In this document: one piece after another, positions 6,244 to 64,000 of the stretch
Numbering within the stretch: position 1 is the stretch's first letter
Layout: each line of letters opens with the position of its first letter
From: Fimicolochytrium jonesii
Taxonomy: Eukaryota
Assembly (NCBI RefSeq): GCF_025526975.1
Contig: NW_026515675.1
Coordinates: 1-64,000 of the forward strand
Length of the DNA stretch: 64,000 nucleotides
Direction: 5' to 3'
Notes under the pieces: model-generated
What the model was told of the DNA's origin: nothing
Database searches by the model: none
The model's input: the letters and a program-made list of their open reading frames with translations, nothing else
Position numbers and translations under genes: made by a program

Positions 6244-7451
6244 CTACCAGCAGCGGGCTTCCCAGCTGTGAATGCAACCGGTCTGCTTTGTATCGCACGC
6301 TGCCTAATACAAGTTGTCGGGCAATGGATGTATACAACCACTGAGCCAACGAAGCTCTGTTATTCAGAGTCAACGCCTATGTGTACCTCCGAGCATACAC
6401 ACCACCGAGTCTCCAGGAGTGATCAGTTCCTGCTTACTCATTACAGATGGCGGCAGTAAACGCATTTACCCTATGCGGATGTCATTTACCATCAAGGGGT
6501 CATGTTCACACTCGTTTTGTGTAGCATGTTGCAACCCCTCCACAGCTTTGACTTCTTTCCAACAATATCGTGAATGAGAACTTCTCTGCAACATATCCGA
6601 TGTTTTTATTAGACAGAAGGTCCCATCCGGCTACAGATCATTCATGGCCTCCAGCCAACCGTGCACTCTTGCGTCGCAAAGCCTCAGTTCCCTTAGAGCG
6701 CTTCCGCTGTTGCTTATCTGTAACGGATTCTGCTTCACCATGGACCAAGATGAAGTCGTCTAACGCAGCGCATTCTTTCACTCGCTCGTGCGCTTCCCAT
6801 GTAGTCTGCTCAGGTGGCCAACCAACCCACTGAACAAGATACTGAGGTTTTCCATGGACCAACCTATTACGCCCAATAATCTTATTGACGTAGTATTCTT
6901 CCTCGCCTTGGACTTGGATGGGCCCTGGGTTAGAGTCCTTTACATCGTCGATGCGCAGCGGATCTCAAGTCTGCTCCGTATGGAAGACCGGGTATAAAGT
7001 GCCCATTTAAGCTGGCAGCTCTAACTCGTATGTTTCTGGGTGTGGTCCTTCCTTCTTCACGATGAAGGGTCCCAGCCAGCTCTGTCTAAACTTGACCGGC
7101 TTCTTATTGAAAGCAGGGATCGTTCTCCCGTCGCTGTTCAACAGGACTTTATCTCCTGGACTAAAGCACTGTACACGACGTCCACGATCGTGATACTTTG
7201 ATTGTTTGTCCTGCGCTTCCCGCAGTTTCTGCTGCACTATGAGTTCAATGTATCGGTATGCTTCAGCACGCTTCTCCTTCTGTACAATGAGCTCACGTCG
7301 TGACTTATGCAAGAATGGGATCGACGTATCGTCCATACATTGCAACACCTTTGCGTCAACTTGCCAATGCATCGGCGCCTGCGGAATTCTACCCAAATCA
7401 ACCTCGGAAGGGCAGTATCCAGTGCTGTTCTGCGTACGGTTGTAGGCAAAC
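6244..7451 (-). pseudogene. pol: Family C 3' fragment (copy C0): integrase C-terminus, chromodomain, partial 3' UTR
   Basis: ORFs 7007-7396 (SWLGPF) and 6638-6862 (YLVQWVGWPPEQTTWE) match C1 at 16140-16960. Confidence 0.9.
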
Positions 7452-7709: not shown

Positions 7710-7787
7710 GGCTTCGCCCGGAACTTGCGTACGAGTCAGGATAAAGAACTCACGGTCTCCCGTCACCGGTTCCCTCAGTAAAGCACC

Positions 7788-16100: not shown

Positions 16101-16963
16101 GGGTTGACAAACTACCGATGTTGGAGTTTGCCTACAACCATCCCCAGAACAGGACTGGATACTGCCCTTTCGAGGTTAATTCGGGTAGAATTCCGCAGGC
16201 GCCGATGCATTGGCAGGTTGACGCAAAAGTGTTGCAACGTATGGACGATGCGTCGATCCCATTCTTGCATAAGTCACGACGTGAGCTTATCAAACAGATG
16301 GAGAAGCGTGCTGAGGCATACCGATCCATTGAACTCATAGTGCAGCAGAAACTGCGGGAAGCCCAGGACAAACAAGCAAAGTATCACGATCGTGGACGTC
16401 GTGTACAGAGCTTTGGTCCAGGAGATAAAGTCCTGTTGAACAGCGACGGGATAACGATCCCTGCTTTGAATAAGAAGCCGCTCAAGTTTAGACAGAGCTG
16501 GCTGGGACCCTTCATCGTGAAGAAGGAAGGACCACACCCGGAAACGTACAAGTTAGAGCTGCCAGCTTTAATGGGCGCTTTATACCCGGTCTTCCATACG
16601 GATATCTTGAAGCCTTGGCACGAGCCGACTTCAGATCCGCTGCGCATCGACGATGTAGAGGACTCTAACCCAGAGCCCGTCCAAGTCGAAGGCGAGGAAG
16701 AATACTATGTTGATAAGATTATCGGATGTAGGTTGGTCCATGGAAAACCTGAGGATCTCGTTCAGTGGGTCGGTTACCCACCTGAGCAGACTACATGGGA
16801 AGCGCACGAGCAAGTGAAAGACTGCGCTGCGTTAGACGACTTCATCTTGGTCCATGGTGAAGTAGAATCCGTTACAGATAAGCGACAGCGGAAGCGCTCT
16901 AAGGGAACTGAGCTCTGCGACGCAAGAGTGCACGGTTGGCTGGAGACCATGAATGATCTGTAG
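13102..16963 (+). pseudogene. pol: C1 pol (PR-RT-RH-IN-chromodomain), disrupted
   Basis: LIDTGC; MPFGLTNAP; YLDY (degenerate YLDD); HEQELLA; H-H-C-C; DRDPR; chromodomain; frameshifts near 13740 and 14680, stop at 15329. Confidence 0.93.
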
Positions 16964-17460
16964 CCGGATGGGACCTTCTGTCTAATAAAAACATCGGATA
17001 TGTTGTAGAGAAGTTCTCGTTCACAATATCTTTGGGCATAAGTCAAAGCTGTGAAAGGGATTGCAACGTGCTACACAAAACGAGTGTTAACACAACCCCT
17101 TGATGGTAAACGACATCCGCATTGGGTAAATGCGTTTACGGCCGCCGTCCGTAACGAGTAAGCAGGAACTGATCACTCCTGGAGACTCGGTGGTGTGTAT
17201 GCCCGGAGGTACACATAGGCGTTGACTCTGAACAACAGAGCTTTGTTGGCTCAGTGGATGCGTATATCCATTGCCCAACAACTTGTATTAGGCAACGTGC
17301 GATACGGCACACCCGTTGCATTCACAGCTGGGATATCCGCTGCCGGTAGCAGGTAGCGTGGATGGCAAACACCATTAAGTTAGAATGGCTTGCAAACGTC
17401 GCCACCCACGACGGTCTTCTGGAAAGTTTTCCTGAATGACACACTACTCTGACCTTCAGT

Positions 17461-17523
17461 TGCAGAACCATGGTTATTTTGCTGCATAACCATGGTTATT
17501 CGCTGCACAACCATGGTTATTTG
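17461..17523. repeat. 3 tandem 21-22 bp repeats with palindromic core AACCATGGTT
   Basis: TGCAGAACCATGGTTATTTTGC / TGCATAACCATGGTTATTCGC / TGCACAACCATGGTTATTTGG. Confidence 0.9.
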
Positions 17524-17645
17524 GACTGACCACAACAAGGACCAGTAAGGATTGCGCTGGGTGCGATCCCGGACACCTTCATATTCTACTCTGCTTGAGC
17601 TTGCTGGGCAGGTTCACGTCGTAGATCTTGGGGGGGTGTAATGTG

Positions 17646-40995: not shown

Positions 40996-43900
40996 TGTGA
41001 TGTGGACTACCTTCCACACGGGTTGTATAACTGATGTTCGTATACAATAACTACTTTGCTGTAAGGTTTTGTAGACAGACTGGGTGTTCGCCGGCCTGCT
41101 ATGCGATATGTAGTAGAAGAACTACTTGTTGTGCATAGGAACGCGCGACGAGCACTGTTAAAGTACCCATGAGGTCGGAGTCCACTGGAGAACACTGTCT
41201 GGAAAGACCTTTCCTTGGACAGCAAAAGGTCTTTCGCTGACCTCGGGAACATGTTTCACTTAGACAGCGATACATGTTCCGTTGACGTGTCGTTCTCCAA
41301 TCAGACTGGACAACCCAACACACCTTACATACCCCCCAGATTCTACGACGCGAACCTGCCCAGCAAGCTCCAGCAAAGTAGAACTTGTATCTGAAGGTGT
41401 CCGGGATCGCACCCAGCGCAATGCTTTGATGGTCCTCGTCGCCGTCAGTCCAAATAACCATATCTCGTGGGCTTTCCCAACGACCGTCGTGAGTATTGAC
41501 GCTTGCAGTCATTCCAATTTAAAGGTATTGCCATCCACGCTGCCTGCTACCGGCAGCGGGTTCCCCAGCTGTGAATGCAACGGGTGTGCTGTATTGTATC
41601 GCACGTTGCCTATACAAGTTGTCGGGCAATGGATATACGCATCCACTGAGCCAACGAAGCTCTGTTGTTCAGAGTCAACGCCTATGTGTACCTCCGGGCA
41701 TACACACCACCGAGTCTCCAGGAGTGATCAGTTCCTGCTTACTCGTTACGGACGGCGGCCGTAAACGCATTTACCCAATGCGGATGTCGTTTACCATCAA
41801 GGGGTTGTGTTAACACTCGTTTTGTGTAGCACGTTGCAATCCCTTTCACAGCTTTGACTTATGCCCAAAGATATTGTGAACGAGAACTTCTCTACAACAT
41901 ATCCGATGTTTTTATTAGACAGAAGGTCCCATCCGGCTACAGATCATTCATGGCCTCCAGCCAACCGTGCACTCTTGCGTCGCAGAGCCTCAGTTCCCTT
42001 AGAGCGCTTCCGCTGTCGCTTATCTGTAACGGATTCTACTTCACCATGGACCAAGATGAAGTCGTCTAACGCAGCGCAGTCTTTCACTTGCTCGTGCGCT
42101 TCCCATGTAGTCTGCTCAGGTGGGTAACCGACCCACTGAACGAGATCCTCAGGTTTTCCATGGACCAACCTACATCCGATAATCTTATCAACATAGTATT
42201 CTTCCTCGCCTTCGACTTGGACGGGCTCTGGGTTAGAGTCCTCTACATCGTCGATGCGCAGCGGATCTGAAGTCGGCTCGTGCCAAGGCTTCAAGATATC
42301 CGTATGGAAGACCGGGTATAAAGCGCCCATTAAAGCTGGCAGCTCTAACTTGTACGTTTCCGGGTGTGGTCCTTCCTTCTTCACGATGAAGGGTCCCAGC
42401 CAGCTCTGTCTAAACTTGAGCGGCTTCTTATTCAAAGCAGGGATCGTTATCCCGTCGCTGTTCAACAGGACTTTATCTCCTGGACTAAAGCTCTGTACAC
42501 GACGTCCACGATCGTGATACTTTGCTTGTTTGTCCTGGGCTTCCCGCAGTTTCTGCTGCACTATGAGTTCAATGGATCGGTATGCCTCAGCACGCTTCTC
42601 CATCTGTTTGATGAGCTCACGTCGTGACTTATGCAAGAATGGGACCGACGCATCGTCCATACGTTGCAACACTTTTGCGTCAACTTGCCAATGCATCGGC
42701 TCCTGCGGAATTCTACCCAAATCAACCTCGAAAGGGCAGTATCCAGTGCTGTTCTGCGTACGGTTGTAGGCAAACTCCAACATCGGTGGTTTGTCAACCC
42801 AATCGTCTCCCGTTACATTAAGGTACGGTTTAATCATCTTCTTAAAGATAGAGATACACCGTTCGACTTTTCCGTCCGCCTGTTGGTGTCGTGCCGTGCT
42901 CAAGCTCTCCTAGAACCCAACAACGATTGAAATGCCTTCCAGAAGTCTGCCAGGTAGCGGGGATCTCAATCTCCGACGATCACAGCTGCAGTACCTGTAT
43001 GGCGCCATACCTCACGGAAGTAAAGCTGGGCCAACTTCTCGGCAGTTATCGTGGATTTCGCAGGTATAAAGTATGCGCGCCCTGACAGATAGTCAATGAA
43101 GACAATGACACTGTCGTAAAACGCATCACTATGCACCTTCCCCCCCCACGACTGGGTTATTGGCATCGAGACAGGGTCCATATCCATCGTGTGCCAACGT
43201 CGGTCGGGAACTGGGAGCAAACGAAGTAAGCCAACACGCTTATTCTTCGGCAACTTGAACCTTTGGCAAGACCCACAAGTCTTGATGTACCCTCTCACAT
43301 CTGCGTCCATATCGCGCCAGTCAAACTCACGTAGGAGCTTGCCCAATGTACCTTGTACCCCCGTATGCGAGCCGGAGAGCAACGAGTCGTGGTACGCCTG
43401 CAATATAGTCCCTCGTAAAGCAGCTGGCACATAGAACTTATCGTGGTACAGTAAACGACCATAGTCATCGAACGAAAAACGGCAATCGAATGTAGAATGT
43501 TGTTCCTTCGGCTGTGACAACGCCTCTTTCCGGAAAGCCAAGTACTCATCAGCCTCCAAGGTTCGTATTCAATCTTTGAGCGTAACATTCCCCAAAGGAA
43601 TATACTCAACGGACATCCCCATGGCCGCAGCGATTTCAACTTGCTTGTTACACTCGGCGCAGCAAGGAGCGTAATAAGGATTACGACTCAACACATCTGC
43701 GACGGTGTTCCAGCGACCATGTTGATATTCAATATCAAATTTGAATTGTTGCAGGAATTCAACCCATCGTGCTTGGCGATGGCTCAGGAAGGGCTGTGTC
43801 TGCGGACAGACCAAACTAGCCTGATCGGTGAACGCGCGAAACAGGCGGTCATTTGTCCGATCCTGCAAGTAATGCCTGTTCGCCTTGCATATGCTAACCA

Positions 43901-44024: not shown

Positions 44025-45124
44025 TGTAGTATCGCGCTTCAAACTACGCATGAAATCGATAATATTTTGACGCCGATTATACGCCTAGAATCTTCGACGA
44101 GCGAAAGAAATCACCTTTATACGACAACGTCAAAACACCATCAAAACTTCCGACAATGAATCGACACACTTGCGTTCTCGACACTCCGACGATTACCAAA
44201 TACAACTACCTTTACCGAAGCCTTGCTTCACAACGATGTTTTGTCCTCGGATACGACTGACATGCGAAAAATGTAGGCGTAGGAGAGGATCTCACACATG
44301 AAGGCACCCCCGACCAGACTCTCAACCAACCAGAAGCTCCCACGACGCCCGAAACGCTGAAGAAATCACCTGCAAAACGAGAAAACCAATTTCCGGTGGC
44401 TGTATACGCCGAAAGTTGCAGAAAACCCCGAGAAAAGATTAGCGATAAGGCTGTACCAGCGCCAAAATTGCGAATGGAAAAAGGAAAAACTACGTAGACC
44501 GCCGCAGGAAAAGAGAAAAAGACCCCGACCTAGCTAAATCCTCTAGAGACGACTAGTAGAGAGTTTGGACTTCGACAAAATCCCGTAGCTAGAAAAATCC
44601 ATATAAAAACCTGCCTGTTTTCCCCAGACCTTGGTACAATACCCAAAACCCAGATCCGTGCACGCAGAACACAGATCCCAATCTACAACAGAGCTTTCTA
44701 CTTCTCTACTCCCGACGACTTCTTTCAGTTTCAGATAGACTCTCAAGGCACGCTCATAGACCCGGAGAGCTTAGACAAGACGACCCCGAGTGTCGCGACT
44801 TGTACTTTGCTGACGTCGCCGAGGACTTGATAGCTTAGGAATCCCGTAAGAAGAGCTGAGAGCTAGGTTGGATAACCCCGTTGTTTTGTTTTGTAGTCAA
44901 CCCCGCAGATATTCCCGATTTCGTACCCGTACCCGTAAGACCCGACCCCCGTATTAGAAGAAGGACTCCTTTCAAAGCACCTGGATATTAAGGTGGCAAG
45001 ACGACGCTCTCGCTTGAGATCTCTTCTTGTGCTATTGAGAGACCGGCAGCTTATTTTTCCCAACACCGGACCGTAAACCCGTATTCGACAGACCCTCGCT
45101 TCTGCTGGCCACCACCACATTTAC

Positions 45125-45144
45125 TGGCGATCCTACCAGGAGTC
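45125..45144 (+). promoter_or_regulatory. PBS TGGCGATCCTACCAGGAGTC (tRNA 3' end complement, probably tRNA-Arg)
   Basis: Reverse complement GACTCCTGGTAGGATCGCCA reads as T-arm, acceptor strand and CCA; the Arg identity is an inference. Confidence 0.7.
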
Positions 45145-45506
45145 CTTTTCTTCAACGAAAAGAGATTCTATCGCTCAGACTTCCTTTCGACCCGTTTATC
45201 CGTATAGACTTTGTACCTACTGTACAACAAAAACTGACGAAAATTGATACGCTAGTTATTCGACTCGCTATCTACCAAAAACAGCCGCTTTTCGACAGCT
45301 CGACAGCGCGTCTCCGCTCGACTTTTCGACAGCTTACCCCTTGTTTCGACACGCAAAAGCGCGTTTTTACATGTGCATTCTGCTGCGCCATTCTTGGACG
45401 TCAGCACTTTCGTACTCCGACAACCGACTCGTTTTTAGAGATGATTTTCGACCGTCTATTGTAGACACCTTCGCATTTTTCGAGTAATAGCAACTTTCTC
45501 GACAAA

Positions 45507-48500
45507 ATGGCAGCCTGATAATTTGAATCCAGACCCGAATCCCGATCCGAACCCGGACCCGAACAATCCGCCTAACCCGCCTCCCGACTATGGGGCGAAT
45601 AACCCGATGTTTGCTGTGACCGCCGACCAGTTTGCTATGCTACTTCGAGTTGCTAGTTCAAAAGGTTTACCTATGATGGGACAACCTGGAGCTATAGAGT
45701 TTGATGGACGAGATGTACAAGAGAAACTCGACATATTCTATGCTCAACTTAACCACGCTGGATATGAACCTGACGCCGAGTACCCGAGCATCGTCCTGAA
45801 CCCTCCGCACACCAGACTTCGCAGTCCGTACAACCCGCGAGATCCTGCTATTGCTAATCAAGAGGAACGACAAATCGTGGAATTGAAACACAAACAATGT
45901 ATGCAGACATTCATCCAGTATTCGAAATCAAGCCTTCGACCGCTGCTTCATAGTATGCCTAGTTTCCAATTGCTCGACATAACCAAACATACTCGATGGA
46001 GAGAAGAACCGACCTGGGCGACGTTTACTGAAGAAGTGATTTTGAACTTTGATGCGTTTCAAACTCGCCATACTTTCAACGACCTCGAACAATGGGCTCT
46101 CAGTCAACGAGACCATGTCAAACTGAACACTGCCAACGTTGCAGAATTTATCAACAAAATGGCCTATCGATATGGAAGAATCGATGGGGTCGCCGACAAA
46201 GAAAAGATCAATCTGCTTCTGACCCCGTGGAAAGACGAACTCGGCTTCGACAAACAAGTTCTCCAACAAGCCAGAAGACTCGCTGCTGAACGTGGAACCC
46301 ACTTGCGACCGACTCAGTTACCCGCCGTTAGCCGAGTTATGGAAGCCATCACCGAAGCAACTAATGAAGATGCCGCGCTTTCTCACTCACGACAGTTATT
46401 AAGCGACCCGATCCCGACGTGCGATCTATGACCGTCCAGAAACCGAGTCTTATGATCCGCGGTATTACCAACCCGACTGTTAGCGACCAGCTGAACTTCG
46501 TACAAGGACAAGTATTACAGACCGAGAGCAAACTTGACCAAGCAGTACGCAAAATGACCGAACAAATGGCCCAGTTACAGACTGGCCAGAACCGAATCCT
46601 GCAGAGCTTGACTCCTGCGACCCGACTTCCGCCTGCGAACGATTCGCAAGGCAGTAGCTCAACAAATACCGGCAATGTGAATGTTCGACCCTTGCGATAC
46701 GTTTATTGCGATCAAGAAGGACACCAGCGCAGATTTTGCAGAGACTTTTCCGAGGTTCAGAACCGAGGAAAACTAGTTCCTAACGGACAAGGACAAATTG
46801 CGTACCCTGACAATACGACCATTGGAGTACCCGGGCAAGAAATCCCTTTGAACATCGGACAAGGAGGGATTAAGAAAGTTTTCGAAGATGCCAAAGCTGC
46901 CCCACTCCGCAACCGCAACACTTCCGCCAATCAGAGATCCTACAGTCATTCAATCCATTCATTTATGCTGCAAAATGACGACAAGAAAAAGACCCGTGAA
47001 ACCTCCGAATGCTCATCCAAAATCCGAGATTATCTTGAAGAACATGCAGAAGACTTGACCTATACGATTCGGAACATTACGAACTGGGACGATCCCATTC
47101 ATTTTGATACGACTATTGCCCAAGCCTGTGATCCAAAACGACCTGCCGTTGCTGATCCAGCTGACAGAAACCGACCCCGAAGTGGACAAGCACCCGCCAG
47201 AGCTGGAACCGATACGGAAGATGCAGATGACACCGTCCGCAAGAGAAAATTACCTACCCGAGCCGACCGAGAAAGATTCGCTGGAAGAGATATCCTGAAA
47301 CCAGGAGAGAAAAAGAAACACTGTCCGATTGGAGACCGGCCAATTGACGATCGACCTGTTACGCCGGTGGAGACTGATACTGAGACCGATACGGATGAAG
47401 AACGACCCAAGCGAAGACAGCCGAAGTTCAAGTTTTATCCCGACATTGCAGACCAAGGCACTCATCCCGTTGACGCAATCAAACGTAGACTCTACAAGAT
47501 CGTCAATATTGGCATTACCTTCCCGGAATTCATGACTCTCAGTCGCGAGTTTCGTAAATCCATTGCATCCGACTTACGACAACACCGTGTACCAATCGAT
47601 CAGTATGAAGAAAGAATCAAAAAACAAAGTGATCGAGAAAAACAGAAGAAAGCCCGTGACGAACGAGTTGCTAAAATGCTGTCCAACGTGAACGCCATTC
47701 AACATTCAGCACACCCTCAGCAGTACCTTAAAAACGTCTATAACATTCAGTCTGAAGAGATGGATGAAGGAGAAGTGATGATGTTTCGACAAATCGCGAC
47801 GGAACATTATAAGACCCCGACTCTAAGTGGAATCAGTCCACACGCGAACGTTAAAATCAACCAGTACTCGAACTCGATCGTTGCACTATTAGATTCCGGA
47901 GCCGAAGTCGACCGCCTGTTTTGTCAGTTCCGAGTCCCTCAGTCACGATTTGATTCTGGGAAGACCTTACCGTCGCATTACCCGATTAGAATAGAAGAAT
48001 TGCGATGATGGAAGTGTATGGTGTCGTATATTCGACCCAGACTCTGCCAAAAGCGCTCAATTCCTCGCCGCACCAGTCAAGTATGGAATTCAACCTCTGG
48101 ACACGTACCTGAAGACATCGAAACGATGGGTTCATCCCGAATACCTCAAAGATATCGACATGCTTTACGGACACAAACTCCGACGACCCCTACGAATGCG
48201 ACCGTACATGATTCAGTATTACGAAACAGAAACGGACAGCGAAGAATATGATTCGACAAAAGGAAACATCAGTGAAGAAGCTACCGACACGATTACGACC
48301 GACAACGAACAAGATTCAGAACACGACGTTGAAGAAGCTTACGAACAATCAATCGAGTATCATGTACAAGCATTTACCTACCAACAACAGTCAATTATGG
48401 ACGACATGCCAATGCTATCCGAAGAATCAGACATCGAAGAAAGCCTTGTTTCAGATTCCGACAGTGATTACAGCATCGATTATGAGGAACTGTATCAGCC

Positions 48501-51500
48501 CAGTCGACGACGAACCTATTCCGAATACGACTCCGACTCCGATTCTGAAGAAGAACTATACTCCGTGCAAGTACGAACGAAATTCAAGGCCGTTGCGAAG
48601 AAGATCAAGCCCGTAGCACAACCCTTGCCCGGAGGCATTCGACCTGAAGCATTACCCAGACCTACGATTACCGAGACACCAGCCAGAAGTACCGTACAAC
48701 AAAACCGATTCAATGGGCGAGAACACTTGCTTACTTTCAGAGAAGATTTGACAACCGAAGAACGAGCGGCGTTCTTATGACTATTGCGCAAATACGACAT
48801 CGCTTTTGCTTTCAACGACAGCGAAAGAGGAACATTAAAGCCACACATCGAAGAACCTGTCAAGATTCATACAATTCCGCATACGCCCTGGATGGTTAAA
48901 CCACACCGATTACCCCCGCAGATGACAAAGATCGCAACAGACCTACTCCGAACGAAACGAGACGCAGGACTGTTGGAACCTTCATTTGGACCCTACCGCA
49001 ACCCCTGGTTCTTAGTTCCCAAGAAGAACAGAACTTATCGATTCGTACAAGACGTACAAATGCTCAACAGCGTGACAATACGAGATGCCGGATGTGCGCC
49101 AATCGCAGAAGTTTTCGCTGAAGAATTTGCTGGACGTTCGATTTTGTCCATGGCAGACATGTATTCCGGATATGATCAAGTACCCCTACACCCCGAATCA
49201 AGAGACCTTACAGCCATGCTTACGCCGTTTGGATTATACCGACTTACCTGACTCCCTCAAGGAGGAACCAATTCACTAGCTCAATTTCAACGAGTAGTCG
49301 ACAAAGTTTTCGAAACCCTCAAACCCGACATCGTCAGCGTATATGTTGATGATACCGGCATCAAAGGACCGAAATACCGAGACGAGACACACGTGAAACC
49401 CAATATTTGCAAGTTCGTACAAGACCACATGGACGACTGCGAGAAAGTATTTATTCTTATGATCGATTCAGGACTCACGTTTTCCGGCGAGAAATCAAGC
49501 TGGGGAATGTCGAAAGCAAGTTTCGCAGGCATAGTCTGCAGTTACAACGGAAGAGCACCCGAACAATCGAAGATCCGAAAAATCACCAGCTGGCCACCTT
49601 GGCAGAACCTGACCGAAGTACGAACATTGCTCGGACTTATTCTATTCTACCGCGCCTGATCAAAGACTTCGCCAAGAAAGCCGACGCCCTGTACAAGTTG
49701 TACAGGAAAAACGCCCGATTCGAATGGACGACCAAGCAACAGACCTGTATGAATACGTTAAAACAAGAATTTGTCGCTTCCAAGATATTAGCTGCGCCGA
49801 ACTACGAAGAAGACGCACCCCCGTTCATTATTACGACCGACGTTAAACCCATTTTGTGGGGAGCAATACTCTCCCAAGTTGATCCCGAAGGAAGAGAAAG
49901 ACCGATACGATTCGAAAGTGGATTGTTTACCGAACAGCAACGAAATACCTACCCGGTAGTCAAACTCGAATTACTTGGAGCCTCCAAAGGAGTTCGCAAA
50001 CTACGAACTTACGTTTGGGGCAGACGTTTCAAGCTCCGAATTGACGCCAAACCCTTGATTCAACTACTACGAAAACCTGAATTCCCCAACAGCACGATCA
50101 CGCGATGGGTAGCACAGTTAATGCTATTCGACTTTGAAATCAAACATATCAAAGGAGAAAAGAACCCTGCGGACGGACTTTCGAGAAAACCCCGAGCAGA
50201 CAATGACACCGACACTGAGAACAAAGACTCCGACGATTTGGAAATGCACGTATTACGAGTTAACTCAGCCACGACCGAATGGAAAAGTGATTTGAATGAA
50301 ATTCGCCAATACCTGACCAATATGACCGTACCTACGCAACACAAGTACCGCAGCCAACGAAGAAAATTCCGAAATCCATGTACCCGATACGCCCTACAAG
50401 ATGACCACCTATTCTTACGAAACGGAAGATTGAAACCACCCCTGCGAATCATCGAAAATGAGCAAGATCAAGAAGAAATTATCCGATTCATGCACGAAAG
50501 CAAGGAAGGAGGAGGACATCGAGGCATCCTTGCGACATTCTGAAAGATACAACAACGCTACTACTGGCCAAGACTGTACAAAGAACTAGAGGCCTACGTT
50601 CAATCCTGCCACAACTGCCAATTCAGAGACCCGAGACGTGAATGTGAACCGCTTTACATCGAAATTCGAAGGACACGACCCTTCCAGAAATGTGGACTAG
50701 ACTTTGTATTTATCACGAAAGGAGCGAACGCAAATGAAGGAGGAATGATTTTACGAGACGACGCAACCGGTTACCCCAAAGGACGAATGACCAGAGGCAC
50801 GCCGACTGCACACAAGATTGCTGCGTTCTTATATGAAGAAGTATTCTGCCGACACGGACTGATCGAAAACCTAGTATCCGCTGGTGGACCCGAAAACGTC
50901 AACGAAATCATACGACATCTTACCGAGCGATACGGCGTCAAACACCAAATTACGACCGCATATCACCCGCAAGCGAATGGATGAGTAGAAAGAGGACACG
51001 CCCCGATTATCGAAAGTCTTATTCGAACCGCACCGACTCCGAGAGAATGGCCAACCGTATTCCCTGCTGCATTATGGGCAGATCGAGTTACCGCGAAAAG
51101 AACGACACAGTGCACACCCTTCTACCTGATTTATGGAAGAGACGCTGTACTACCTATCGAACTCACGTACGAAACATGGATGACAGTACCGAATCTTCAA
51201 CAACCCATGAGAACCGAGACACTTTTACAACACCGCATCGAACAATTCCGATACAGAGACAAAGACCTAAAGCTAGCGACAGAGCGACTAATCGCAAGCC
51301 GAAGAGCGAACAAGAAGTATTGGGAAAAACGACACCGAATTAGAAACCGACCTTTCGAACCCGGAAACATAGTTCTCTTGCACAACACAAAACTATTGAC
51401 CCAACAAACAAAGACTGACAACAAATGGTTTGGACCGTACAGAATTACCAAATCCAACGACAACAGCTTGTATTACATCGAAAAATTAGACCAGACACCG

Positions 51501-51632
51501 ATACGCAAACCTGTAGCTGGAGACCGATTGAAGATATTTCGAACCCAAACCCAGACACAACCGATAGTCGACGACACCGCTGAAGACGAAGAAGAAACAG
51601 ACGAAGAAGACAACATTACGGACGAGAATTGA
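45507..51632 (+). pseudogene. gag-pol: H gag-pol (Gag with NPDP repeats, degenerate CCHC, PR, RT, RH, IN; no chromodomain)
   Basis: YCDQEGHQRRFC; LLDSGAEV; DMYSGYDQ; YVDDTG; RFESG; GGGHRG; TAYHPQANG; KWFGPY; many stops and frameshifts. Confidence 0.93.
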
Positions 51633-52486
51633 TGAGGACATCAATATTCGACAAAAGGAAAGATGTAGTATTGCGCTTCAAACTACGCATGAAATCGATA
51701 ATATTTCGACGCCAATTATACGCCTGGAATCTTCGACAAGCGAAAGAAATCACCTTTATACGACAACGTCAAAATACCATCAAAACTTCCGACAATAAAT
51801 CAACACACTCGCGTTCTCGACACTCCGATGATTACCAAATACAACTACCTTTACCGAAGCCTTGCTTCACAACGATGTTTTGTCCTTGGATACGACTGAC
51901 ATGCGAAAAATGTAGGCGTAGGAGAGGATCTCACACATGAAAGCACCCCCGACCCGACTCTCAACCAACCAGAAGCTCCCACAACGCCCAAAACGCTGAA
52001 GAAATCACCTGCGAAACGAGAAAACCAATTTCCGGTGGCCGTATATGCCGAAAGTTGCAGAAAACCCCGAGAAAAGATCAGCGATAAGGCTGTACCAGCG
52101 CCAAAATTGCGAATGGAAAAAGGAAAAACTACGTAGACCGCCGCAGGGAAAGAGAAAAAGACCCCGACCTAGCTAAATCCTCTAGAGACGACTAGTAGAG
52201 AGTTTGGACTTCGACAAAATCCCGTAGCTAGAAAAATCCAAATAAAAACCCGCTCGTTTTCCCCAGACCTTTGTACAATACCCAAAACCCAGATCCGTGC
52301 ACGCAGAACACAGATCCCGTTCAACAACAGAGCTTTCTACTTCTCTACTCCCGATGACTTCTTTCAGTTTCAGATAGACTTTCAAGGCGCGCACATAGAC
52401 CCAGAGAGCTTGGACAAGAGGACCCCGAGTGTCGCGACTTGTACTTTGCTGATGTCGCCGAGGACTTGATAGCTCAGGAATCCCGT

Positions 52487-54426: not shown

Positions 54427-55031
54427 TGACCGAGGTGAGCCGCATCGTTCAGCACAGACTCCGAGAGGCCCAGGACAGGCAGGCAAGATACTACGACAGG
54501 AACAAGAATACGGACGCGTTTGTAGTGGGCAACCAGGTCCTGCTGAACCGCAAGAGCATCCAGATCAAGAGTATCCCGGCCCGAAACAAGAAGCTGTCCG
54601 CGCTATGGATTGGGCCCTTCACCGTCAGCGGAAAAGGGCCCCACCCGGACACTTACGAGCTGGAGCTCTCCCACGCGTTCAGTGAACTACACCCGGTGTT
54701 CCACGTCAACATCCTACGCAGGTACAACCCTCCGGAGAACGGCCCATACCGAAAAGTGGATGCACCACCCCCCCCGGAGGAAGTCAACGGCGAACTCGAA
54801 CACCGAGTTGAAGACATCCTCGACGCCAAGTGGGTACGCAACACCGAGATGTTCCTGGTCAAATGGGCCGGCTACGACGTGTCCCAGAACACCTGGGAGC
54901 CACTCCGACACGTCCGTGACACCTTGGCCCACAAGCGATATGTCCGAAAGCAAGCCGCCAAGCGCCAGGAGACTCGGGAGACCAAGGCAAAGGAGAGAGC
55001 GGCAGTCTCTCGTCGCCGTAAACCTATCTGA
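54427..55031 (+). pseudogene. pol: Family G chromovirus pol C-terminus (integrase GPF region plus chromodomain), 5'-truncated
   Basis: IVQHRLREAQDRQ...WIGPF...GPHPDTYELEL...EHRVEDILDAK...FLVKWAGYDVSQNTWEP; related to families C and B. Confidence 0.92.
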
Positions 55032-55094
55032 ACCTTGTACATACATCAAAACAGAGTTTCTACTGTCCGAAATGATGATTACCATTACGGACTC

Positions 55095-55373
55095 ATCCGG
55101 GCGGGTACTAGTACCAAGGCCTATGATGCGGGCGGGTACATAGTACCAGGGCCTATGATGCGGGCGGGTACGAGGTACCAGGGCCTATGCGAGCGGGCAA
55201 GCAAGGTGTCAGGGCTCATGCGGGCGGGTATGTAATACCAAGGCCTAGGATGCGGGCGGGTACAGGGTACCAGGGCCTATGCGAGCGGGCAAGCGAGGTG
55301 TCAGGGCTCATGCGGGCGGGTATGCAATACCAGGGCCTAGGATGCGAGCGGGTGCGACGCACCAGGGCTCAGG
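55095..55373. repeat. About 9 tandem 29-32 bp repeats, most with an internal hairpin; consensus ATGCGGGCG-GGTAC-nnn-GTACC-AGGGCCT
   Basis: Units read directly; a ~92-bp three-unit block is duplicated. Confidence 0.93.
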
Positions 55374-55459
55374 ACGATCGGTGAAGTACCAAAGGGAAAC
55401 GCTCCGAAGAGATCAAATTCAATAAAATTTATACAAGAAAGAAGAACGACAACGCCAGG

Positions 55460-58400
55460 CTAAATACCAGCCTGTTTGGCAAAAGACCATTGGCAACGTG
55501 AGCCGTGGCAGGCGGCCCCCATGCCACAACGCAGCGGGACGAACTGCTGGACGTTCATCTGGCTAGAGGGAGCGCGTCACGTCAGTGGCGGGACCTGTCG
55601 AAAATTCACCACTGTTGTACTTACGCGCGGACATATCCCATACACTGGATGTGGTCGCAGGGGAAGACCCGCACGTCCTCGGCCAGACACTCGCAGTCGG
55701 GCCACACACAGGTGCAGGGTAGCGCCTGGCAGAAGAGCGGCACTTCACACTCCTCCCCGAAACCGTCCACGTAGCCGCACGTGAACTCCCCGATGTGTTA
55801 AGAATGGGCGGAGCCGACGGAAATAGAGGCGACTTGTGGTGCAGGTTGTTGACAGGTAATGGTATTCAGACCGAAACAAGAACTAGAACAAGACTAGGAA
55901 GAACTGGTGTTGATCTGCTGGGGGATCAGGAAGTGGGGAGCCCAGGGGAGGCGGCTATTTATGCTTTTCTGGGAAGGCTGGGGAAGCGTGGGGAAGCAGA
56001 AGGGTACGGAATGAGAGGGAAGCCAAGAGAAGCGCCAAGGGTGGGGGAAGCATAGAAACAGAAGACTGGGGATGGGGTGGCTACGCTGAGGCTGTGGGCG
56101 GGTACGTGGGGAAGTATGGAGAAGGGTTTGTAAGCGCCGAGTGTTGGGAGGTGTGGCGACGTGCGGCTGCGTGGAGAAATGAAGGCAGTGGCAGGTGTGG
56201 GGTAGCGCGGCTGCGTGCGGCTGCGAGGTTTGGCAGATGTCGGGTTTTGACAGGGAATTGACATTGACTGACTGTTGGGATGCTGTCATGAGGTAAGCGC
56301 ATGGTATGGACGCGTCGTCCATAACATCACCCCCTCCTTTAGCCACGGCGTCCGGATGTTGTGTTGATGTTGGCAGGCTTTGGTCGGGGTTTGTCGGGGT
56401 ACTTTTCGTGGAACTGGGCAACAAGCTCTTGACAGCGGGCAAGGTGTTCCACTGGCTCCCATGTGTTCTCCGAGCTTGGCCAACCCTGCCACTTGATGAG
56501 GTACTGAAGGTGCGTGCGTCAAATACGGGAGTCAAGAATGTCTTCCACAATCCATTCCTCCTGTCCTTCGACTTCTTCTGGTGGGGTGGGTTCTGGCTCA
56601 GTTTGCTCCAGAATGGTGAAACGTGGTTCAAGAAGGGAGACATGGAAGACGTTGTGAATTTTGTAGGATGGGGGAAGCTTGAGGCGATATGTGACCGAGT
56701 TGATCTTCTCCGTGATTGTGAAGGGGCCAATCTTACGGTGATCAAGTTTCTGGGAAGGTCGGAGAGTCTTGAGATTCCGCTGTAAGAGCCAGACACTGTC
56801 CCCGGGTTTCATGTCTGGGCCAGGTGCCCTCTTAGCATCGGCAAAGCGCTTCATGCGTCCTTGGGCTTCCTTGAGCTCAGTGGCAAGCTGTTCATGGATT
56901 TCCTTGAGATGGTTGGCACGAGCTTCGGTTGCAGGATTAAGGGATTCGGTTGTGGTGGCGGAAGCCAGACTGAATCGAGGATGGAACCCATAGTTGGCGT
57001 AGAAGGGGGTTGTCTGGGTGGCGGAGTGGATGGTGTTATTGTAAGAGAACTCAGCAGAAGACAAGAGTTCCTTCCAGTTATCTTGTTGATAGTTGCAAAA
57101 GCAGCGAAGGTATTGCTCAAGAGTCTGATTGGTCCGCTCGGTTTGTCCATCGCTCTGGGGATGGAACGCCGATGAGAGGTTGACCCTGGTTCCCAGGAGA
57201 GCGAAGAGACGTTTCCAGAAGTGGGAGTTGAACTGTGGGCCACGGTCAGATACAATATCGTCGGGGAGTCCATGGAGCCGGATGACATGGTGCCAGATCA
57301 GATCTGCAGTTGACTCAGCGGTGGCAGTTTTCCTGCACGGTACAAAGTGCCCCATCTTGGTGAACCGGCAGATGACAACGAGCACAGAAGCAACCCCATC
57401 CCTGGCGGGTAGATCCGTGATGAAGTCCATGGAAATTGACCCCCAGGGGCGGTCAGGGACCTGCAGGGGTTGGAGGAGTCCGTAGGGCTTGTGTCTGCTG
57501 GTCTTGGCTTGAGCACATACGTCGCAGGACCTGATGTAGGACTTGACAAAACGCCACTGGCTAGGCCACCAGTAGTTGTGTGAGATGAGCTCCAGGGTCT
57601 TTGACATGCCGTAGTGTCCTGCCAAACGCGTGTCATGCATGTCCCGGCAGATCTCAGCACGGAGCTTGTTGGTGGGGACGTAGACAAGGTTGTCGTACAG
57701 CAGAACCCCATTTTCCTCGGAGAATCGCTTTATCCGTTCTTGGCCTTCTTGAGATTGCTGGGCAATGGGGGCCCTAAGCTGTCGCCGGATGGTTTGCGCA
57801 AACACATCGGATGCCAGGGCAGCTTTGATTTGGTCAAGGAGCGAGGAGTCCAGTGGGGTCAGATAAGTGGCGGCCAGGCGGAGATGGTCAGGGGTGAGGA
57901 TCGTGGTTTCCTGGGAGCGGAATGCTTCTTCCCCCTCCCTTAGCTCGTATTCAGAGCGACGAGAGAGGGCGTCAGCTTGGTGTTGCTGGGTACCAGGGCG
58001 GTATGTGATGACAAAGTCGAAATCAGCAAAGAAGATTGACCAGCGGGATTGGCGGCGGTTGAGGGTACGGGTAGTCATGAAGTACTGGAGGTTCTTGTGG
58101 TCACAGTAAACGATGACCTTGTGGCGGGCACCAATGAGGTGGTGTCGCCATTGAGCGAATGAGTCTTGGATAGCAGGAGTTCCTTGTCGTAGATCTCATA
58201 GTTGATTTCCTCAGGAGTAAATTTGCGGGAGTGAAAGGCCACGGGGTGGAGTTGATCTGTGTCATCGGGTTGAAGGAGGACGGCGCCAAGGGCAAAGTCG
58301 GAGGCATCGGATTCGACAATGAAGGGCTTGTCAGGGTCGGGGTGAGTCAGGATAGGTGCGGAGGTGAAGGCTTTCTTGAGGGTTTCAAAAGCTAGGTGTG

Positions 58401-61400
58401 CAGCGTGGGTCCATTTGAATGGCAAGTCTTTGCGAGTGAGCGTGGTCAGGGGTGCAACGATCGCAGAGTACCCTTTGATGAATCGCCGGTAGAAGTTGGC
58501 AAAACCAAGGAAGCGCTGGATGCCTTTGACATTCGTCGGGGGTTCCCATTCGGTAATGGCAGCCGTCTTCTTTGGGTCCATGGAAATGCCTTGCTGGGAG
58601 ATGATAAACCCCAGGAACTCAATAGAGTCACGGTTGAATTCGCATTTTTCCGGTTTCGCATACAGCCCGTGCTGGCGGAGCCGTGAGAGCACCTCTCGGA
58701 CGTGGTTGGGGTGGTCTTCTGGGTTTTTTGAGAAGATCAGAATGTCGTCAAGGTAGACCACAACAAAAACGTCGAGAATGTCACGGAATATGTCGTTCAT
58801 GAGGTGTTGGAATACTCCAGGGGCATTGGTGGGCCCAAACGGCATGACATTATACTCGAATAGGCCGTAGCGACATCGGAACGCTGTCTTCCATTCATCC
58901 CCTGGCCGGATCCGAAGAAGGTTGTAGGCTCCCCGGAGGTCAATCTTGGTGAGCCGGCGTGCCCCTCGAAGACGATCCATGATGCTGTTAATCAAGGGCA
59001 AGGGATAGCGATTCTTGATGGTGATATTGTTGAGTCCAAGATAGTCGACGCACAGACGGAGGGAACCGTCCTTTTTCTTGACAAAGAGGACTGGGGCACC
59101 GGCGGGAGACTTGGAGTGCTTGATGAACCCCTTAGCTAGGTTCTCTTCAAGGTAGTCACAGAGTGCCTGCATTTCAGGCTCGCTGAGACTATAGATCGGG
59201 CCGAACGGTGGCTGTTTGCCCTCTTCTAAGTCGATGGGACAGTCGTAGGGTCGGTGCTCTGGGAGGGTATCCGCGTTCTTCTTGGCGAAGACGTCCGCAA
59301 AATCTTGGTATTCTTCAGGATTGATGGCCTTCGGATCTTTTGGAGGAGTGGTCGCCAGGGATTGGGAATCTGACTTGGTCGGATTGGCGTAGGCAATGAA
59401 TGCCTGGTCATGCCTTGCCGCCACACGGAAAGCTGGGGCGCTGATAAACGATACGTGGATCGGTGTGGGTGCTGGGTCCAGTGTGTTGGGTGTCTGGGCT
59501 AGGGAGACTGAAATCTCGTCTTGATGGATACGGATCAGAGGTTCAGGGGTTCTTGAGGGTTTCGGGCTAGGTTCTGTTGGCAGGGCATCCCAGGAGGCGT
59601 ATTGTCCAAAACCGTAATGGCAGCGGACGCAAAGAGTGCGAGTCTTCCAGTGTAGCTCCACATCATGGAGCTCAAACCAGGGAAGCCCCAGGATGATTGG
59701 CGCATGCGGGGAACATGTCACATGGAATACCACCTCCTCAAAATGGTCGTTGACCCACATGCCCAAAGGTTGGGTGTGATGGGTAATGGAGCCCGCATGG
59801 CTGGGACGTCCGTCAACCAGTTCAAGCGCAATGGGGTCCTCCTTCTTGACAAGTGGGATTCGGTGCTTGCGGGCATAACTTTCGTCGATGAAGCACGACA
59901 TCGCACCGGTGTCAAGTAGTGCTGAAAGCTGAACTGGAGCTCGCTGGGCCGATATCTGCAGGGTAACAGGGTACTCGAATGGTGAGGATGGGCCCAAAAT
60001 CCGCATGGGTGAGGGTATCTCAGATCGGAGATTGACATTGTTGGTGGTCAGGAGAAGGGTGTTGCTGGAGATGCCAGGATCGGAGCAAGGTTTTGTGGCT
60101 TCTCCCTTGGCAGTACTTGCGTGGTGAGAAGGCCCAGGACAGGTGTTGCCCAGCTGCTCGGCCTTTACTGCAGCTGGACTTGGGCAAAATCCTGGATGGG
60201 TGCAGGTTCCTTAACCGCGACATTCGCCGTGCGTATCTTGTTTGGGCAGAGTTTGGCTATGTGGCCAGGTTTACCACAATAGAGGCAAAGTTTCTTTGTG
60301 ATGCGGTGTTGGCGCTCTAGCGGTGTGAGGGGTCCTCGCGGACGAGCAGCGTCAATGATCATAGGGTCGTCTGGGCGGTTGTCGGGGCTCATGAGGGTGG
60401 GGCTAGTGGTAACTGGCACATATGGCTGTCGGTTCCTGCTTCGCTCTAGACGGCGCTCAAACAATCGGTTGTCACATTGGATGGCCTGTTCCATCACGGT
60501 GTCGATTGAGGCGGTAGGGGGCATCGTGAGCATTAAGTCCTTGACGTCTTCTTTGAGGCCGCGACGGAAGGTGGCAATCAATGCCTGGTCATTCCACGAC
60601 ACATCGCATTGCAGCTGTCGGAATTCAGCTACATACTCTGTTGCTGCATGGGTTTGTCGAAGGTTCTGGAGCTTGTTTTCGGACGTGCGGATCCTGTCGC
60701 TGTCTCCAAAGACTGCTTGCATTTGCTGGATGAAATCATCCAGGTTCGTAAGGGAATGATGGTCTTGTTCGACAAGGGGCGCCAGCCAGGCCTGGGCGGT
60801 GCCAGTGAGGTAGGTGCCAATAGTTCGTATCTTGGTCTGATTGTTGGGGTAGCGCCTGGGTTGGAGGGCAAACATGAGCCGGATCTGGTTGAGGAACCCA
60901 CGGAATTTGCTTCGGGTGCCATCAAATTTGTCTGGGAGACTGATTTTGGGTTCGGGGGCGTGGGTGGCAGGGGCAGTGGTCTGGGTTTGCGCTAGTTCGG
61001 CTTGTAGGGTGGTATTCTGTGCTCGAAGTTCGTCAATCGCATTGCACATGGCTTGCCAGGCTTCGGCCGTGAGGGGAAGGGCGTCGGACATGGTGATTTG
61101 GCGTGGAGGCACAGCGGCTGGGGGTTGTTGAGCAGATCAAACTGTTAAGAATGGGCGGAGCCGACGGAAATAGAGGCGACTTGTGGTGCAGGTTGTTGAC
61201 AGGTAATGGTATTCAGACCGAAACGAGAACTAGAACAAGACTAGGAAGAACTGGTGTTGATCTGCTGGGGGATCAGGAAGTGGGGAGCCCAGGGGAGGCG
61301 GCTATTTATGCTTTTCTGGGAAGGCTGGGGAAGCGTGGGGAAGCAGAAGGGTACGGAATGAGAGGGAAGCCAAGAGAAGCGCCAAGGGTGGGGGAAGCAT

Positions 61401-62101
61401 AGAAACAGAAGACTGGGGATGGGGTGGCTACGCTGAGGCTGTGGGCGGGTACGTGGGGAAGTATGAAGAAGGGTTTGTAAGCGCCAAGTATTGGGAGGTG
61501 TGGCGACGTGTGGCTGCGTGGAGAAATGAAGGCAGTGGCAGGTGTGGGGTAGCGCGGCTGCGTGCGGCTGCGAGGTTTGGCAGATGTCAGGTTTTGACAG
61601 GGAATTGACATTGACTGACTGTTGGGATGCTGTCATGAGGTAAGCGCATGGTATGGACGCGTCGTCCATAACACGATGGGCGTGTCGGTCTGTCGGGAAG
61701 AGACGTGAGCTGTCAGTCACCCCACGGGAACCACCCATGACATGCGGTTCCTTACAGTGTCATCACAGAGCAGGAGGATGCAGGGCCGGCATATAACGTG
61801 CTGGCACGCCGAGAGGAACATCTTACGGGGGCGGTACGTGTTGCAGTTCCAACACGTAGGCCGGGCCGGTGGAGCCGGGGGCTCCGGGGTACTGTCCGAG
61901 TGCTCCTCGGGGGTGTCCTGAGATAGAATTGGTCAAACCACGTAAGTTCGGTCAATTGGGCAACCTCCGTGAACTCACCACTCGCTGTCGCTTGAGAGCC
62001 TTCTTCAGGCTGTCCCCTGTGGTGGGGCCCTTGCCTACTTTCTTCTTGCCCGATGACGGGCCGGCGGCAGTGGGCTTGGCAGGAGGAACTACGCTGGCCA
62101 T
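55460..62101 (-). CDS. Spliced 4-exon gene for a 189-aa Cys-rich tandem RING-like protein, disrupted by the A2 insertion. Exons: 62101-61979, 61917-61756, 61689-61674 joined to 55790-55625, 55562-55460
   Basis: Introns of 61, 66 and 62 nt (GTGAGT...CAG, GTAAGG...CAG, GTAAGT...TAG; TTGAC/CTGAC branch-like sites); the 570-nt joined frame has no stops; CWNC-x12-CQH-x2-CRPC; TATA box upstream. Confidence 0.85.
56519..60192 (-). pseudogene. pol: A2 pol with one frameshift in RNase H (near 58175)
   Basis: ORFs 58075-60006 and 56519-58078 together match the 1162-aa ORF of the plus copy. Confidence 0.95.
60165..61091 (-). CDS. gag: A2 gag, intact
   Basis: Open frame; capsid motifs; CLYCGKPGHIAKLC. 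Confidence 0.95.
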   Translation of the reverse strand: MSDALPLTAEAWQAMCNAIDELRAQNTTLQAELAQTQTTAPATHAPEPKISLPDKFDGTRSKFRGFLNQIRLMFALQPRRYPNNQTKIRTIGTYLTGTAQAWLAPLVEQDHHSLTNLDDFIQQMQAVFGDSDRIRTSENKLQNLRQTHAATEYVAEFRQLQCDVSWNDQALIATFRRGLKEDVKDLMLTMPPTASIDTVMEQAIQCDNRLFERRLERSRNRQPYVPVTTSPTLMSPDNRPDDPMIIDAARPRGPLTPLERQHRITKKLCLYCGKPGHIAKLCPNKIRTANVAVKEPAPIQDFAQVQLQ

Positions 62102-62200
62102 AGTGAAGAGGGGAACGGCGACGCGGAGAGGTTACGAGATTGGGAGCAAGAAATGTAAGTCCGGGGACTGGCGGGAAGGTGCCGAGGAGACTACTGCCTT

Positions 62201-62210
62201 CCTTTTATAT
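62201..62210 (-). promoter_or_regulatory. Candidate TATA box (ATATAAAAGG) of the antisense RING-like gene
   Basis: About 100 nt upstream of the ATG at 62101, followed by a pyrimidine-rich leader. Confidence 0.65.
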
Positions 62211-62435: not shown

Positions 62436-62511
62436 AAGGGGGGTGTAATGAGGTGCTGCAGGTGTCACCTTAGTGCGGGGAAGCGCGTAGGGCATGAGAT
62501 CACGTGTAGCA
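62436..62511 (+). repeat. Probable G PPT (AAGGGGGG) plus start of 3' LTR (TGTAATGAGG..., from 62444), truncated
   Basis: Same G-tract|TGTAA junction as related family C; same strand as G pol; no second LTR copy in the window. Confidence 0.65.
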
Positions 62512-64000
62512 TAGATTATATTGGGGTTCTACGCTCTGGGGTGACTCCCGAAGGGAAGAAAAGCCTTCGGGCGGCGCCCCGGGAGGTAGAAACTCTAGAA
62601 TTCTTTCAATACATCGAGCGGAGACAGAGCTAGCCTCTGGCAACGGACCTAGCATTATTGCACGCTCGCTCAGTCGCCAGTGAACAGCACTCGCACTCAT
62701 TATTGGACTAGCCCTATCCAGGCAAATGTGCCATATATGACTTCTGTGTCGCCGGCACCCCATGCGCCTCCTCAGCGCGCTATGGCCTACTCCGTCCCGT
62801 ACGCTTATAAAGCCCCGGAACGGCATCCTTACTTTCAACCTCGTTCTCAAAGCCCTCCTTTCAATGAAATTCCTCATGAAAGTGCATCTGTGAGATCTGT
62901 TACTCCCGTAACACCCCCTACGGCCGGCAAATCAGCTTCCAAAGTCTTCATCATCACTACCCTTAGTAAACTCGGCTCTACAACGGCGATCCCAATGTTA
63001 CCAAGCTTCAAGGGTTCCTTGATCACATCGACGTAATTATGAAGTACGAGATGATTTCGCCTTCCGAATGCGTAGACTTCGTCGTCAACGCGCTCACTGG
63101 ACCAGCTCTCCAGTGGTGGAAAAGCCTTCCTGAAAACGAGCGCTTCTCCATAATTTCCTGGCACAATATTCAAGACGTCTATGGACTGCCCCCGCGACTC
63201 GGATTACGCTCCGCAATGTTGAGGCGCTTCATTCCCCGGAATCATCTGCCGCAAGTTCTTCACAGACTGCGCGCTCTGAAGCCCAAGTCAATTAACCATC
63301 AAGGTTTAACCGAATTTGTCGCCCAGTTCAACCTTTTGGCTGGATAACTCCCCAGGCTCCCGGAATACGTGCTCTGTGCCGATTTCCTTCAAGCCCTTCC
63401 TAAGAATCTTAGTACCCTGATCACTGCTCAGGCTCAGTACGATGATAGACTTAGTCCTTCTCAAGAAGCCGCGATTCGTATAGCCGCCGAGCACAACGAG
63501 AAGACCCCGAGTATGCCTCAGTCGGGGGCATCCGCTGCCCACGTTACTTCCACTCTACCTCAGAAGAAGAAGAACAAATCCAAGACTGGCGGCTCCAGAG
63601 GCACCCCCTCTACCCAATCCTCATCTTCTGACGCAACCAAGAAGCCTCCCCAATGCAAATACTGCAATAGGGACGGCCACAAGTCGGAAAACTGCTTTAC
63701 TTACAAAGCTGTCAAGGATATCATGGACAAGAACGCGAAAAACAAGGCACCCGCTGCAGCCTCCATGGCTTATGCCATGCATGTTCAAGTTCAACCAGCC
63801 AACCACGACGTCTGCCTCTTCAAGGCGAACGTGGATTCCGGTTGTACGGATCATATGACCGCCTATATCAAGGATCTAGATCCATCTTCTATTCAAGGCT
63901 ACCAACGCCTTATTGGACTCGCGGATTCGACTACCATTACCTCTCAAAAGAAGGGTACCGTACTTATCCAACCTACGTCCGGCGGCGAAGTTCTCGCTCT
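62512..64000 (+). pseudogene. gag-pol: Diverged copia D-family gag-protease fragment (D2), running off the window
   Basis: MKYEMISPSECVDFVVNALTGPALQWWKSL; CKYCNRDGHKSENC; VDSGCTDHM; homologous to about 8400-9720. Confidence 0.92.

Follow-up and report, generated by a model that had tools for sequence, protein, structure and literature searches.

The minus strand of a 64,000-nt stretch of the chytrid Fimicolochytrium jonesii (assembly GCF_025526975.1, contig NW_026515675.1, positions 1 to 64,000; hereafter the window) carries a three-intron gene for a RING-like protein inside the 3′ region of a chromovirus-type long terminal repeat (LTR) retrotransposon, family G. The gene is real, conserved across species and repeated in the relative Powellomyces hirtus. 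We consider it likely to be cargo of G. With somewhat less assurance, but still on balance, we favour the reading that it is an antisense accessory gene of G, whose product would be a two-module RING-like zinc protein acting in the nucleus on the host ubiquitin system for the element. One homologue, P0001, is DAC81638.1, which is annotated as the ‘oncoid’ of Powellomyces chytrid fungus MELD virus 1 (21,205-nt record).

After removal of A2, a retrotransposon lying in exon 3, and of three GT-AG introns, the spliced minus-strand frame comprises 570 nt and 189 amino acids (aa) with no internal stop. Both the exon coordinates and the translation given in a preliminary description of this DNA were reproduced on recomputation. 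The introns have the ends GTGAGT..CAG (61 nt), GTAAGG..CAG (66 nt) and GTAAGT..TAG (62 nt), and each of the three contains a branch-like motif, CTGAC or TTGAC, 19–27 nt from its 3′ end. A TATA box belonging to the gene itself had also been described and is present as TATAAAA at 62209-62203. The basic N-terminal patch resembles a nuclear localization signal by inspection only; the strict motif for such a signal is found in the window protein alone among the proteins compared. In the direction of the gene, the features are:

62203..62209, minus strand: TATA-like box TATAAAA, about 100 nt upstream of the gene's ATG, from sequence
61979..62101, minus strand: exon 1, from the ATG; basic N-terminus with 10 K/R in 41 aa
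61918..61978, minus strand: intron 1, 61 nt, phase 0; P0001 has a 25-aa read-through insert at the matching site
61756..61917, minus strand: exon 2, with a Pro-rich linker and ligands 1-6 of the RING-like module; 52% to P0001-P0003
61690..61755, minus strand: intron 2, 66 nt, phase 0; in-frame stop if unspliced; P0001 has a 25-aa read-through insert at the matching site
61674..61689, minus strand: first 16 nt of exon 3, including the right copy of the target-site duplication at 61674-61678
55796..61673, minus strand: A2, full-length Ty3/gypsy chromovirus in exon 3, with LTRs at 55796-56326 and 61143-61673
55791..55795, plus strand: left copy of the target-site duplication CGATG, from sequence
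55625..55790, minus strand: part of exon 3 following A2, coding for the final two ligands of module 1 and the greater part of module 2
55563..55624, minus strand: intron 3, 62 nt, phase 2; the viral ‘oncoid’ frame stops exactly at this site
55460..55562, minus strand: exon 4, with the end of the second Cys/His module and the stop
55415..55434, no strand assigned: AT-rich patch just past the gene's stop, by its sequence a likely 3′-end signal

The copy of the gene in the window is disrupted (killed) by A2. This element has gag, reverse transcriptase (RT), RNase H (RH) and integrase (IN) domains, is 98.6% identical to the copy A1, and is flanked on both sides by CGATG, as the preliminary description had stated for its 5-bp duplication. 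Its two LTRs agree at 525 of 531 nt, which indicates that the insertion is recent in a gene that is otherwise intact. In both A copies the pol frame ends at ‘DSRI’ just inside the chromodomain region (24464 and 56519), and this shared stop suggests that the A family has spread with a truncated or read-through chromodomain.

The evidence that the gene is genuine comes from its homologues. A search of exon 2 against 1.84 billion protein representatives returned five matches, three of which are credible, namely DAC81638.1 and two hypothetical proteins of P. hirtus; P0004 and P0005 were dropped as Pro-rich low-complexity or repeat matches. The clusters of the credible matches add three P. hirtus models, which brings the total in this species to five (KAI8911323, KAI8921334/5, KAI8904226 and KAI8903067) on four contigs of 7 kb to 2 Mb. 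These models are 91–100% identical over their shared parts, and two of them, with consecutive accessions, have the same sequence. The spliced window protein aligns with P0007 of P. hirtus at 44% identity over 151 aa (E 5e-43). The score of 131 bits is far beyond chance, given that the best score among 500 shuffles of P0007 was 26.6 bits. Exons 2, 3 and 4 each match the homologues singly (exon 3 with P0001, 41% over 61 aa, E 2e-12; exon 4 with P0007, 55% identity over 29 aa, E 9e-13), and the match thus covers all exons that carry cysteine modules. Exon 1 alone gave no significant match to the homologues; what speaks for it is that the intron-1 site is shared and that the N-termini are alike in being basic and of low complexity. 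In the six frames of the window, a profile of three Powellomyces proteins finds exons 2, 3 and 4 (E 1e-16, 2e-10 and 2e-8) and nothing else below E 0.9. As a database query, exon 3 alone found no longer protein, in a search that must be regarded as insensitive since exon 3 matches well pairwise, and P0003 returned only two proteins, both from P. hirtus. Relatives were not found in metagenome contigs, viral contigs, prokaryote genomes or phage records. One DNA sequencing run with a 0.12 share gave no match on the gene, a result that speaks neither for nor against it. A repeated family that is confined to one genus and its virus resembles a mobile gene.

The viral homologue retains traces of the introns in its annotated frame. 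DAC81638.1 contains two 25-aa inserts located exactly at the positions of introns 1 and 2 of the window gene. Both open with V and close with Q, which is what in-frame reading of a GT..CAG intron would give. The viral protein terminates after ‘VRA’, at the point where intron 3 starts and brings an in-frame stop. The inserts together with the ‘VRA’ end imply that all three intron sites are conserved. The deposited ‘oncoid’ is an unspliced reading, which runs on across the first two introns and is cut off by the third, and the true product of the viral gene should have a fourth exon. Oncoids are defined by an LxCxE and/or a CR1 motif (PMC8502044, section 3.2). None of the four family proteins tested carries either motif; the window protein alone has an unconserved LxCxD. 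Beyond the ‘oncoid’ label, no paper on the gene was among those listed in our literature searches. DAC81638.1 and the P. hirtus proteins form one protein family with the window protein, with 36–49% identity, the same Cys/His pattern and, in the viral frame, the three intron sites. In contrast to the window gene, which lies in the 3′ region of an LTR element, DAC81638.1 is annotated unspliced in a viral record, without exon 4 and without LxCxE.

The ligands of module 1 (C63, C66, C79, H81, C84, C87, C105 and C115) follow the C3HC4 order and are all kept in P0003 and P0007. Module 2 consists of C128, C133, C145, H147, C150, Y153, C168 and C174, followed by H175 and C179. The window protein, P0003 and P0007 agree at 17 of 18 Cys/His positions, and residue 153 is His in both homologues. 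The two modules show weak mutual likeness (E 0.017 pairwise), and a ‘tandem RING’ architecture is plausible on this pattern. An AlphaFold model of P0003 was calculated from a 7-row alignment, and every top fold match listed for it is RING-type; with VIA-align, residues 49-127 match RING-type domains with a best Z of 5.9 and a root-mean-square deviation of 2.8 over 59 residues. Atlas neighbours are RING, IBR and RBR clusters at 0.82-0.87, which is below 0.9 and makes them leads only, with module 2 below 0.8. The best PDB profile match is PCGF5 (E 0.013), and exon 2 alone ranks BRE1A first. The idea of a PCGF/PRC1 mimic, which arose from the PCGF5 match, was dropped because exon 2 favours BRE1A and the fold searches rank other RINGs higher; no literature on PRC1 in chytrids was found.

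Canonical RING E3 ligases have an Ile or Leu that contacts the E2, a Trp in the helix, a CPxC motif and a linchpin Arg. On inspection of the window protein, CPxC, the helix Trp and the Arg linchpin were all missing, and the residue that precedes the second Cys is not hydrophobic. The protein shares the C3HC4 ligand order with RING-HC E3 ligases, and its listed top fold matches are RING-type, whereas 9 aa separate its last two ligands. In the Powellomyces proteins this last loop has only 4 residues and is reminiscent of RBR RING1 domains. Module 1 thus appears RING-like in sequence, yet without the usual E2-binding and linchpin residues.

The gene lies between the pol stop of G (55031) and a polypurine tract (PPT) followed by an LTR start, on the strand opposite to G, and its earlier antisense placement there was borne out. 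The surrounding features are:

54428..55031, plus strand: 3′ remnant of G pol, with integrase C-terminus, SH3 and chromodomain; stop at 55031
55089..55368, no strand assigned: array of ~31-32-nt tandem units that separates pol from the gene's 3′ end; higher-order repeat of 92 nt
62436..62443, plus strand: polypurine tract AAGGGGGG; the flanks of the gene contain no other purine run of at least 8 nt with TG directly after it
62444..62613, plus strand: likely 3′ LTR of G, TGTA...TACA, 170 nt, possibly truncated, with two long hairpins
62630..64000, plus strand: copia-like gag-protease interior, 81% to 8377-9721; the alignment reaches ~62630 and the left edge is approximate

The pol remnant of G matches SH3_Tf2-1 (4e-11) and Chromo (3e-11) above the Pfam cut-offs and is 56% identical to P0008, a full RT-RH-IN-chromo pol. 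That G might be an integrase of a MELD virus was rejected because the best match is a full RT-bearing pol. RT and RNase H are absent from the copy in the window, which is truncated at the 5′ side, where an A-related element on the opposite strand has replaced it (junction approximate). In a midpoint-rooted tree of 12 rows, made from integrase C-termini only, G groups with the window families B and C and with a P. hirtus pol (support 98/98), and C is the closest family to G in the window. The distance from the G stop to the 3′ end of the gene is 428 nt and contains the tandem array. The interval from the G stop to the gene is free of PPTs and LTRs, and the next PPT followed by TG is found 335 nt beyond the ATG, where AAGGGGGG directly precedes TGTAAT (62436-62449). 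The stretch 62444-62613 folds with a z of -6.1 (-6.0 in the comparison with other LTRs) and the first 170 nt of the C-family LTR with -5.4, whereas the opening parts of four other LTRs range from -2.1 to +1.2. Among 26 background windows, 25 were no lower than -2.74, the 26th being the 62444-62613 stretch itself. At the C copy at 17637, the PPT and the LTR start are nearly the same as at 62444; a second C copy is a looser match. Within the 64 kb there is no second copy of 62444-62613. By its PPT, opening sequence and hairpins, position 62444 resembles an LTR start of the G/C clade and, on the one copy available, is probably the G LTR start that the preliminary description had assumed. We dropped the idea that 62444 opens a 5′ LTR belonging to the copia-like element downstream, because the middle of gag comes next and the other copy differs upstream; judged by sequence, this element is likely the insertion target of G. 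The likely G LTR (62444-62613) and the C LTR (40996-41326) both open with unusually stable hairpins, which are possibly a clade-specific RNA element.

In the window, LTR retrotransposons lie nested in one another. In a census of all 45 stop-free open reading frames (ORFs) of at least 200 aa, 27 have Pfam matches at E 1e-4, all to retroelement gag/pol domains, and 18 have no match; by Pfam, no DNA-virus or host gene is among the 45. The GC content at third codon positions (GC3) is 0.77 in the gene and 0.75 in G pol, in comparison to 0.40-0.69 in 13 other element ORFs, and no direct or inverted repeats of at least 8 nt bracket the gene in its flanks. The likeness in GC3 and the absence of bracketing repeats favour cargo, as do the facts that the relatives are repeated rather than single-copy and that a PPT occurs only beyond the gene. 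Several observations weigh against our reading. The linkage to G is seen in a single, 5′-truncated copy with one LTR-like end in the 64-kb window, a 21-kb record of a DNA virus contains one homologue as an annotated gene, and the high GC3 could equally mark a host gene. On the side of the protein, Pfam zf-RING_5 scores 17.5-23 bits on module 1 against a cut-off of 27.9 (E 4e-4 for exon 2). The P0003 model has a mean pLDDT (predicted local distance difference test) of 45, with 55-73 over residues 51-110; it is usable only at ~55-112 and gives no confident structure for module 2. VIA-align found 11 chains at a Z of at least 5 and none at 8, and the best Foldseek match, which is RING-type, has E 0.047, with none at E 0.001 or better. 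Pfam gave no RING hit on module 2, even sub-threshold, and no IBR or catalytic RBR domain in the family proteins, and the single-sequence fold of P0007 reached a pLDDT of 33. Of the RING claim in the preliminary description, the ordered C3HC4 ligands hold up, but Pfam stays below its cut-off and Z below 8; the AlphaFold check proposed there returned RING-type matches, but at low pLDDT and for module 1.

The main rival to cargo, and a serious alternative origin, is raised by the viral record: the gene could be native to chytrid Polinton-like (MELD) DNA viruses, and the G lineage or only this copy would have taken it from an integrated virus. By the record's name, P0001 is a gene of MELD virus 1, and it shares the intron sites of the window gene. 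A single Powellomyces dataset yielded six assembled MELD viruses (PMC8502044, section 3.4; preprint 10.1101/697771), and the presence of several copies per genome would also be explained by integrated viruses. However, none of the 45 long window ORFs is viral, the immediate neighbours of the gene are a chromovirus pol end and a PPT/LTR, and the LxCxE and CR1 motifs are absent from all four proteins. In addition, the Fig. 5 legend of PMC8502044 lists Gag- and retropepsin-like genes in one unnamed map, so that a retroelement nested in a viral contig is possible. We regard a viral origin as unlikely. An ordinary host gene that was stranded in the retrotransposon nest, or captured once by a G copy and without a role for the element, would account for the normal promoter, the introns, the high GC3 and the single G copy seen. 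Such a gene would hardly be expected to have five near-identical models in P. hirtus, or to yield, from 1.84 billion representatives, just three credible relatives that all belong to Powellomyces or to its virus, and no host gene was recognised in the 64-kb window; we consider this origin improbable. Arrival on a separate DNA element, a Helitron or a terminal-repeat transposon inserted in the 3′ region of G, is in our view the most improbable of the three. Introns and multiple copies would fit movement at the DNA level, and the tandem array has small internal palindromes, but the flanks are not joined by repeats of at least 8 nt and Pfam detects neither transposase nor helicase among the 45 long ORFs. 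Five of the six CTRR-T sites downstream of the gene have negligible hairpins; the sixth, at -5.2 kcal/mol, ranks in the top few percent of 329 such sites but lies inside the repeat array.

For the gene as cargo of G, we propose the following mechanism. Its own TATA promoter, just inside the PPT, would give rise to an antisense transcript that is spliced. The genomic RNA of G would carry the introns in reverse and unspliced, and they would be kept through reverse transcription; this backward orientation would explain why the introns persist. Module 1 is predicted to fold as a RING, and the predicted product is a zinc protein of the nucleus that engages a RING/E2 complex of the host. Since the usual E2-contact and linchpin residues are missing, it would not be an E3 on its own but a decoy or a non-canonical partner of a ligase. 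That it acts by way of the ubiquitin system is possible, with the balance slightly against it, and an anti-silencing role in particular, as suggested in the preliminary description, seems doubtful. We also speculate that the same intron-bearing tandem-RING gene may be a counter-defence module that chytrid LTR retrotransposons and Polinton-like DNA viruses have in common, which would move from one to the other and disarm a ubiquitin-dependent host restriction directed at both; we rate this as rather unlikely.

Other elements of the window gave separate observations. The copia-like family (7782-9962, 62630-64000) has a copia-type protease followed by an integrase-like frame, and its gag matches Ty3_capsid and Retrotrans_gag above the cut-off; it thus combines a gypsy-type gag with a copia-order pol. 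Antisense to the 3′ region of family C, at 6308-6574 (plus strand), a frame ends in CxHxxCxxC and matches zf-RING_5 (E 0.025) and IBR_1 (E 0.03). In the matching C regions (16963-17636, 41326-41943) a stop and an Arg stand there, and the substitutions are spread over the codon positions without bias (5/7/8). The data do not support a related RING gene in family C, and the frame is probably a chance match or a long-decayed gene. Element D (44025-52486) has 823-nt LTRs that are 95.5% alike and no chromodomain; its gag-region frames (45445-48780) have no Pfam match, and it represents a non-chromovirus gypsy lineage with an unusual gag.

The layout of the gene has a fungal precedent in brtn (Zhao et al. 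2011), an antisense gene of the element Boty that is reported to be multi-exon. A review treats antisense genes between pol and the 3′ LTR in plant elements as well as in Boty of Botrytis (PMC7264820); the pol of Boty has a chromodomain (PMC4227169; 10.1101/2021.04.13.439636). The earlier remark that no description in fungal chromoviruses is known therefore fails for the layout. Like the window gene, brtn of Boty/BcGypsy1 (Botrytis cinerea, Sclerotinia) is an extra gene antisense between pol and the 3′ LTR of a chromodomain Ty3/gypsy element (PMC7264820, PMC4227169, 10.1101/2021.04.13.439636), but its host is an ascomycete, the descriptions cited do not mention a RING, and the likeness concerns the described layout. 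The arrangement of tandem array, antisense gene and PPT in the window matches Retand (PMC11963269) and Boty (PMC7264820). The antisense ORFs of Retand, Grande and RIRE2 also have their own promoter and lie between pol and the 3′ LTR, tandem arrays occur there, and the Grande product is nuclear (PMC11963269, PMC7264820). In contrast to G, these elements belong to a non-chromovirus plant lineage, and their product is mostly TRP28 and not RING, with introns unmentioned in the portions cited (PMC11963269, PMC7264820). Bdelloid rotifer ORF3 genes likewise represent one accessory gene across different mobile-element classes, but they are enzymes shared among retroelements, whereas the partner of the window gene would be a DNA virus (PMC5408684). 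No RING accessory gene in LTR elements was found in a literature search that covered few subscription papers.

In conclusion, the layout is already known, and what is new is the RING-like product, the conservation of introns across species and the tie to a DNA virus record. Function and origin of antisense extra genes in LTR elements are stated to be unknown in reviews (PMC7264820). The recognisable fold class, the intron-conserving homologues and the near-identical P. hirtus copies make function and selection directly testable here. Our findings correct the viral ‘oncoid’ annotation, which is an unspliced reading of a three-intron RING-like gene without LxCxE. Should the gene prove native to the retrotransposon as well as to the virus, this would be a documented case of accessory-gene exchange between two very different classes of mobile elements.

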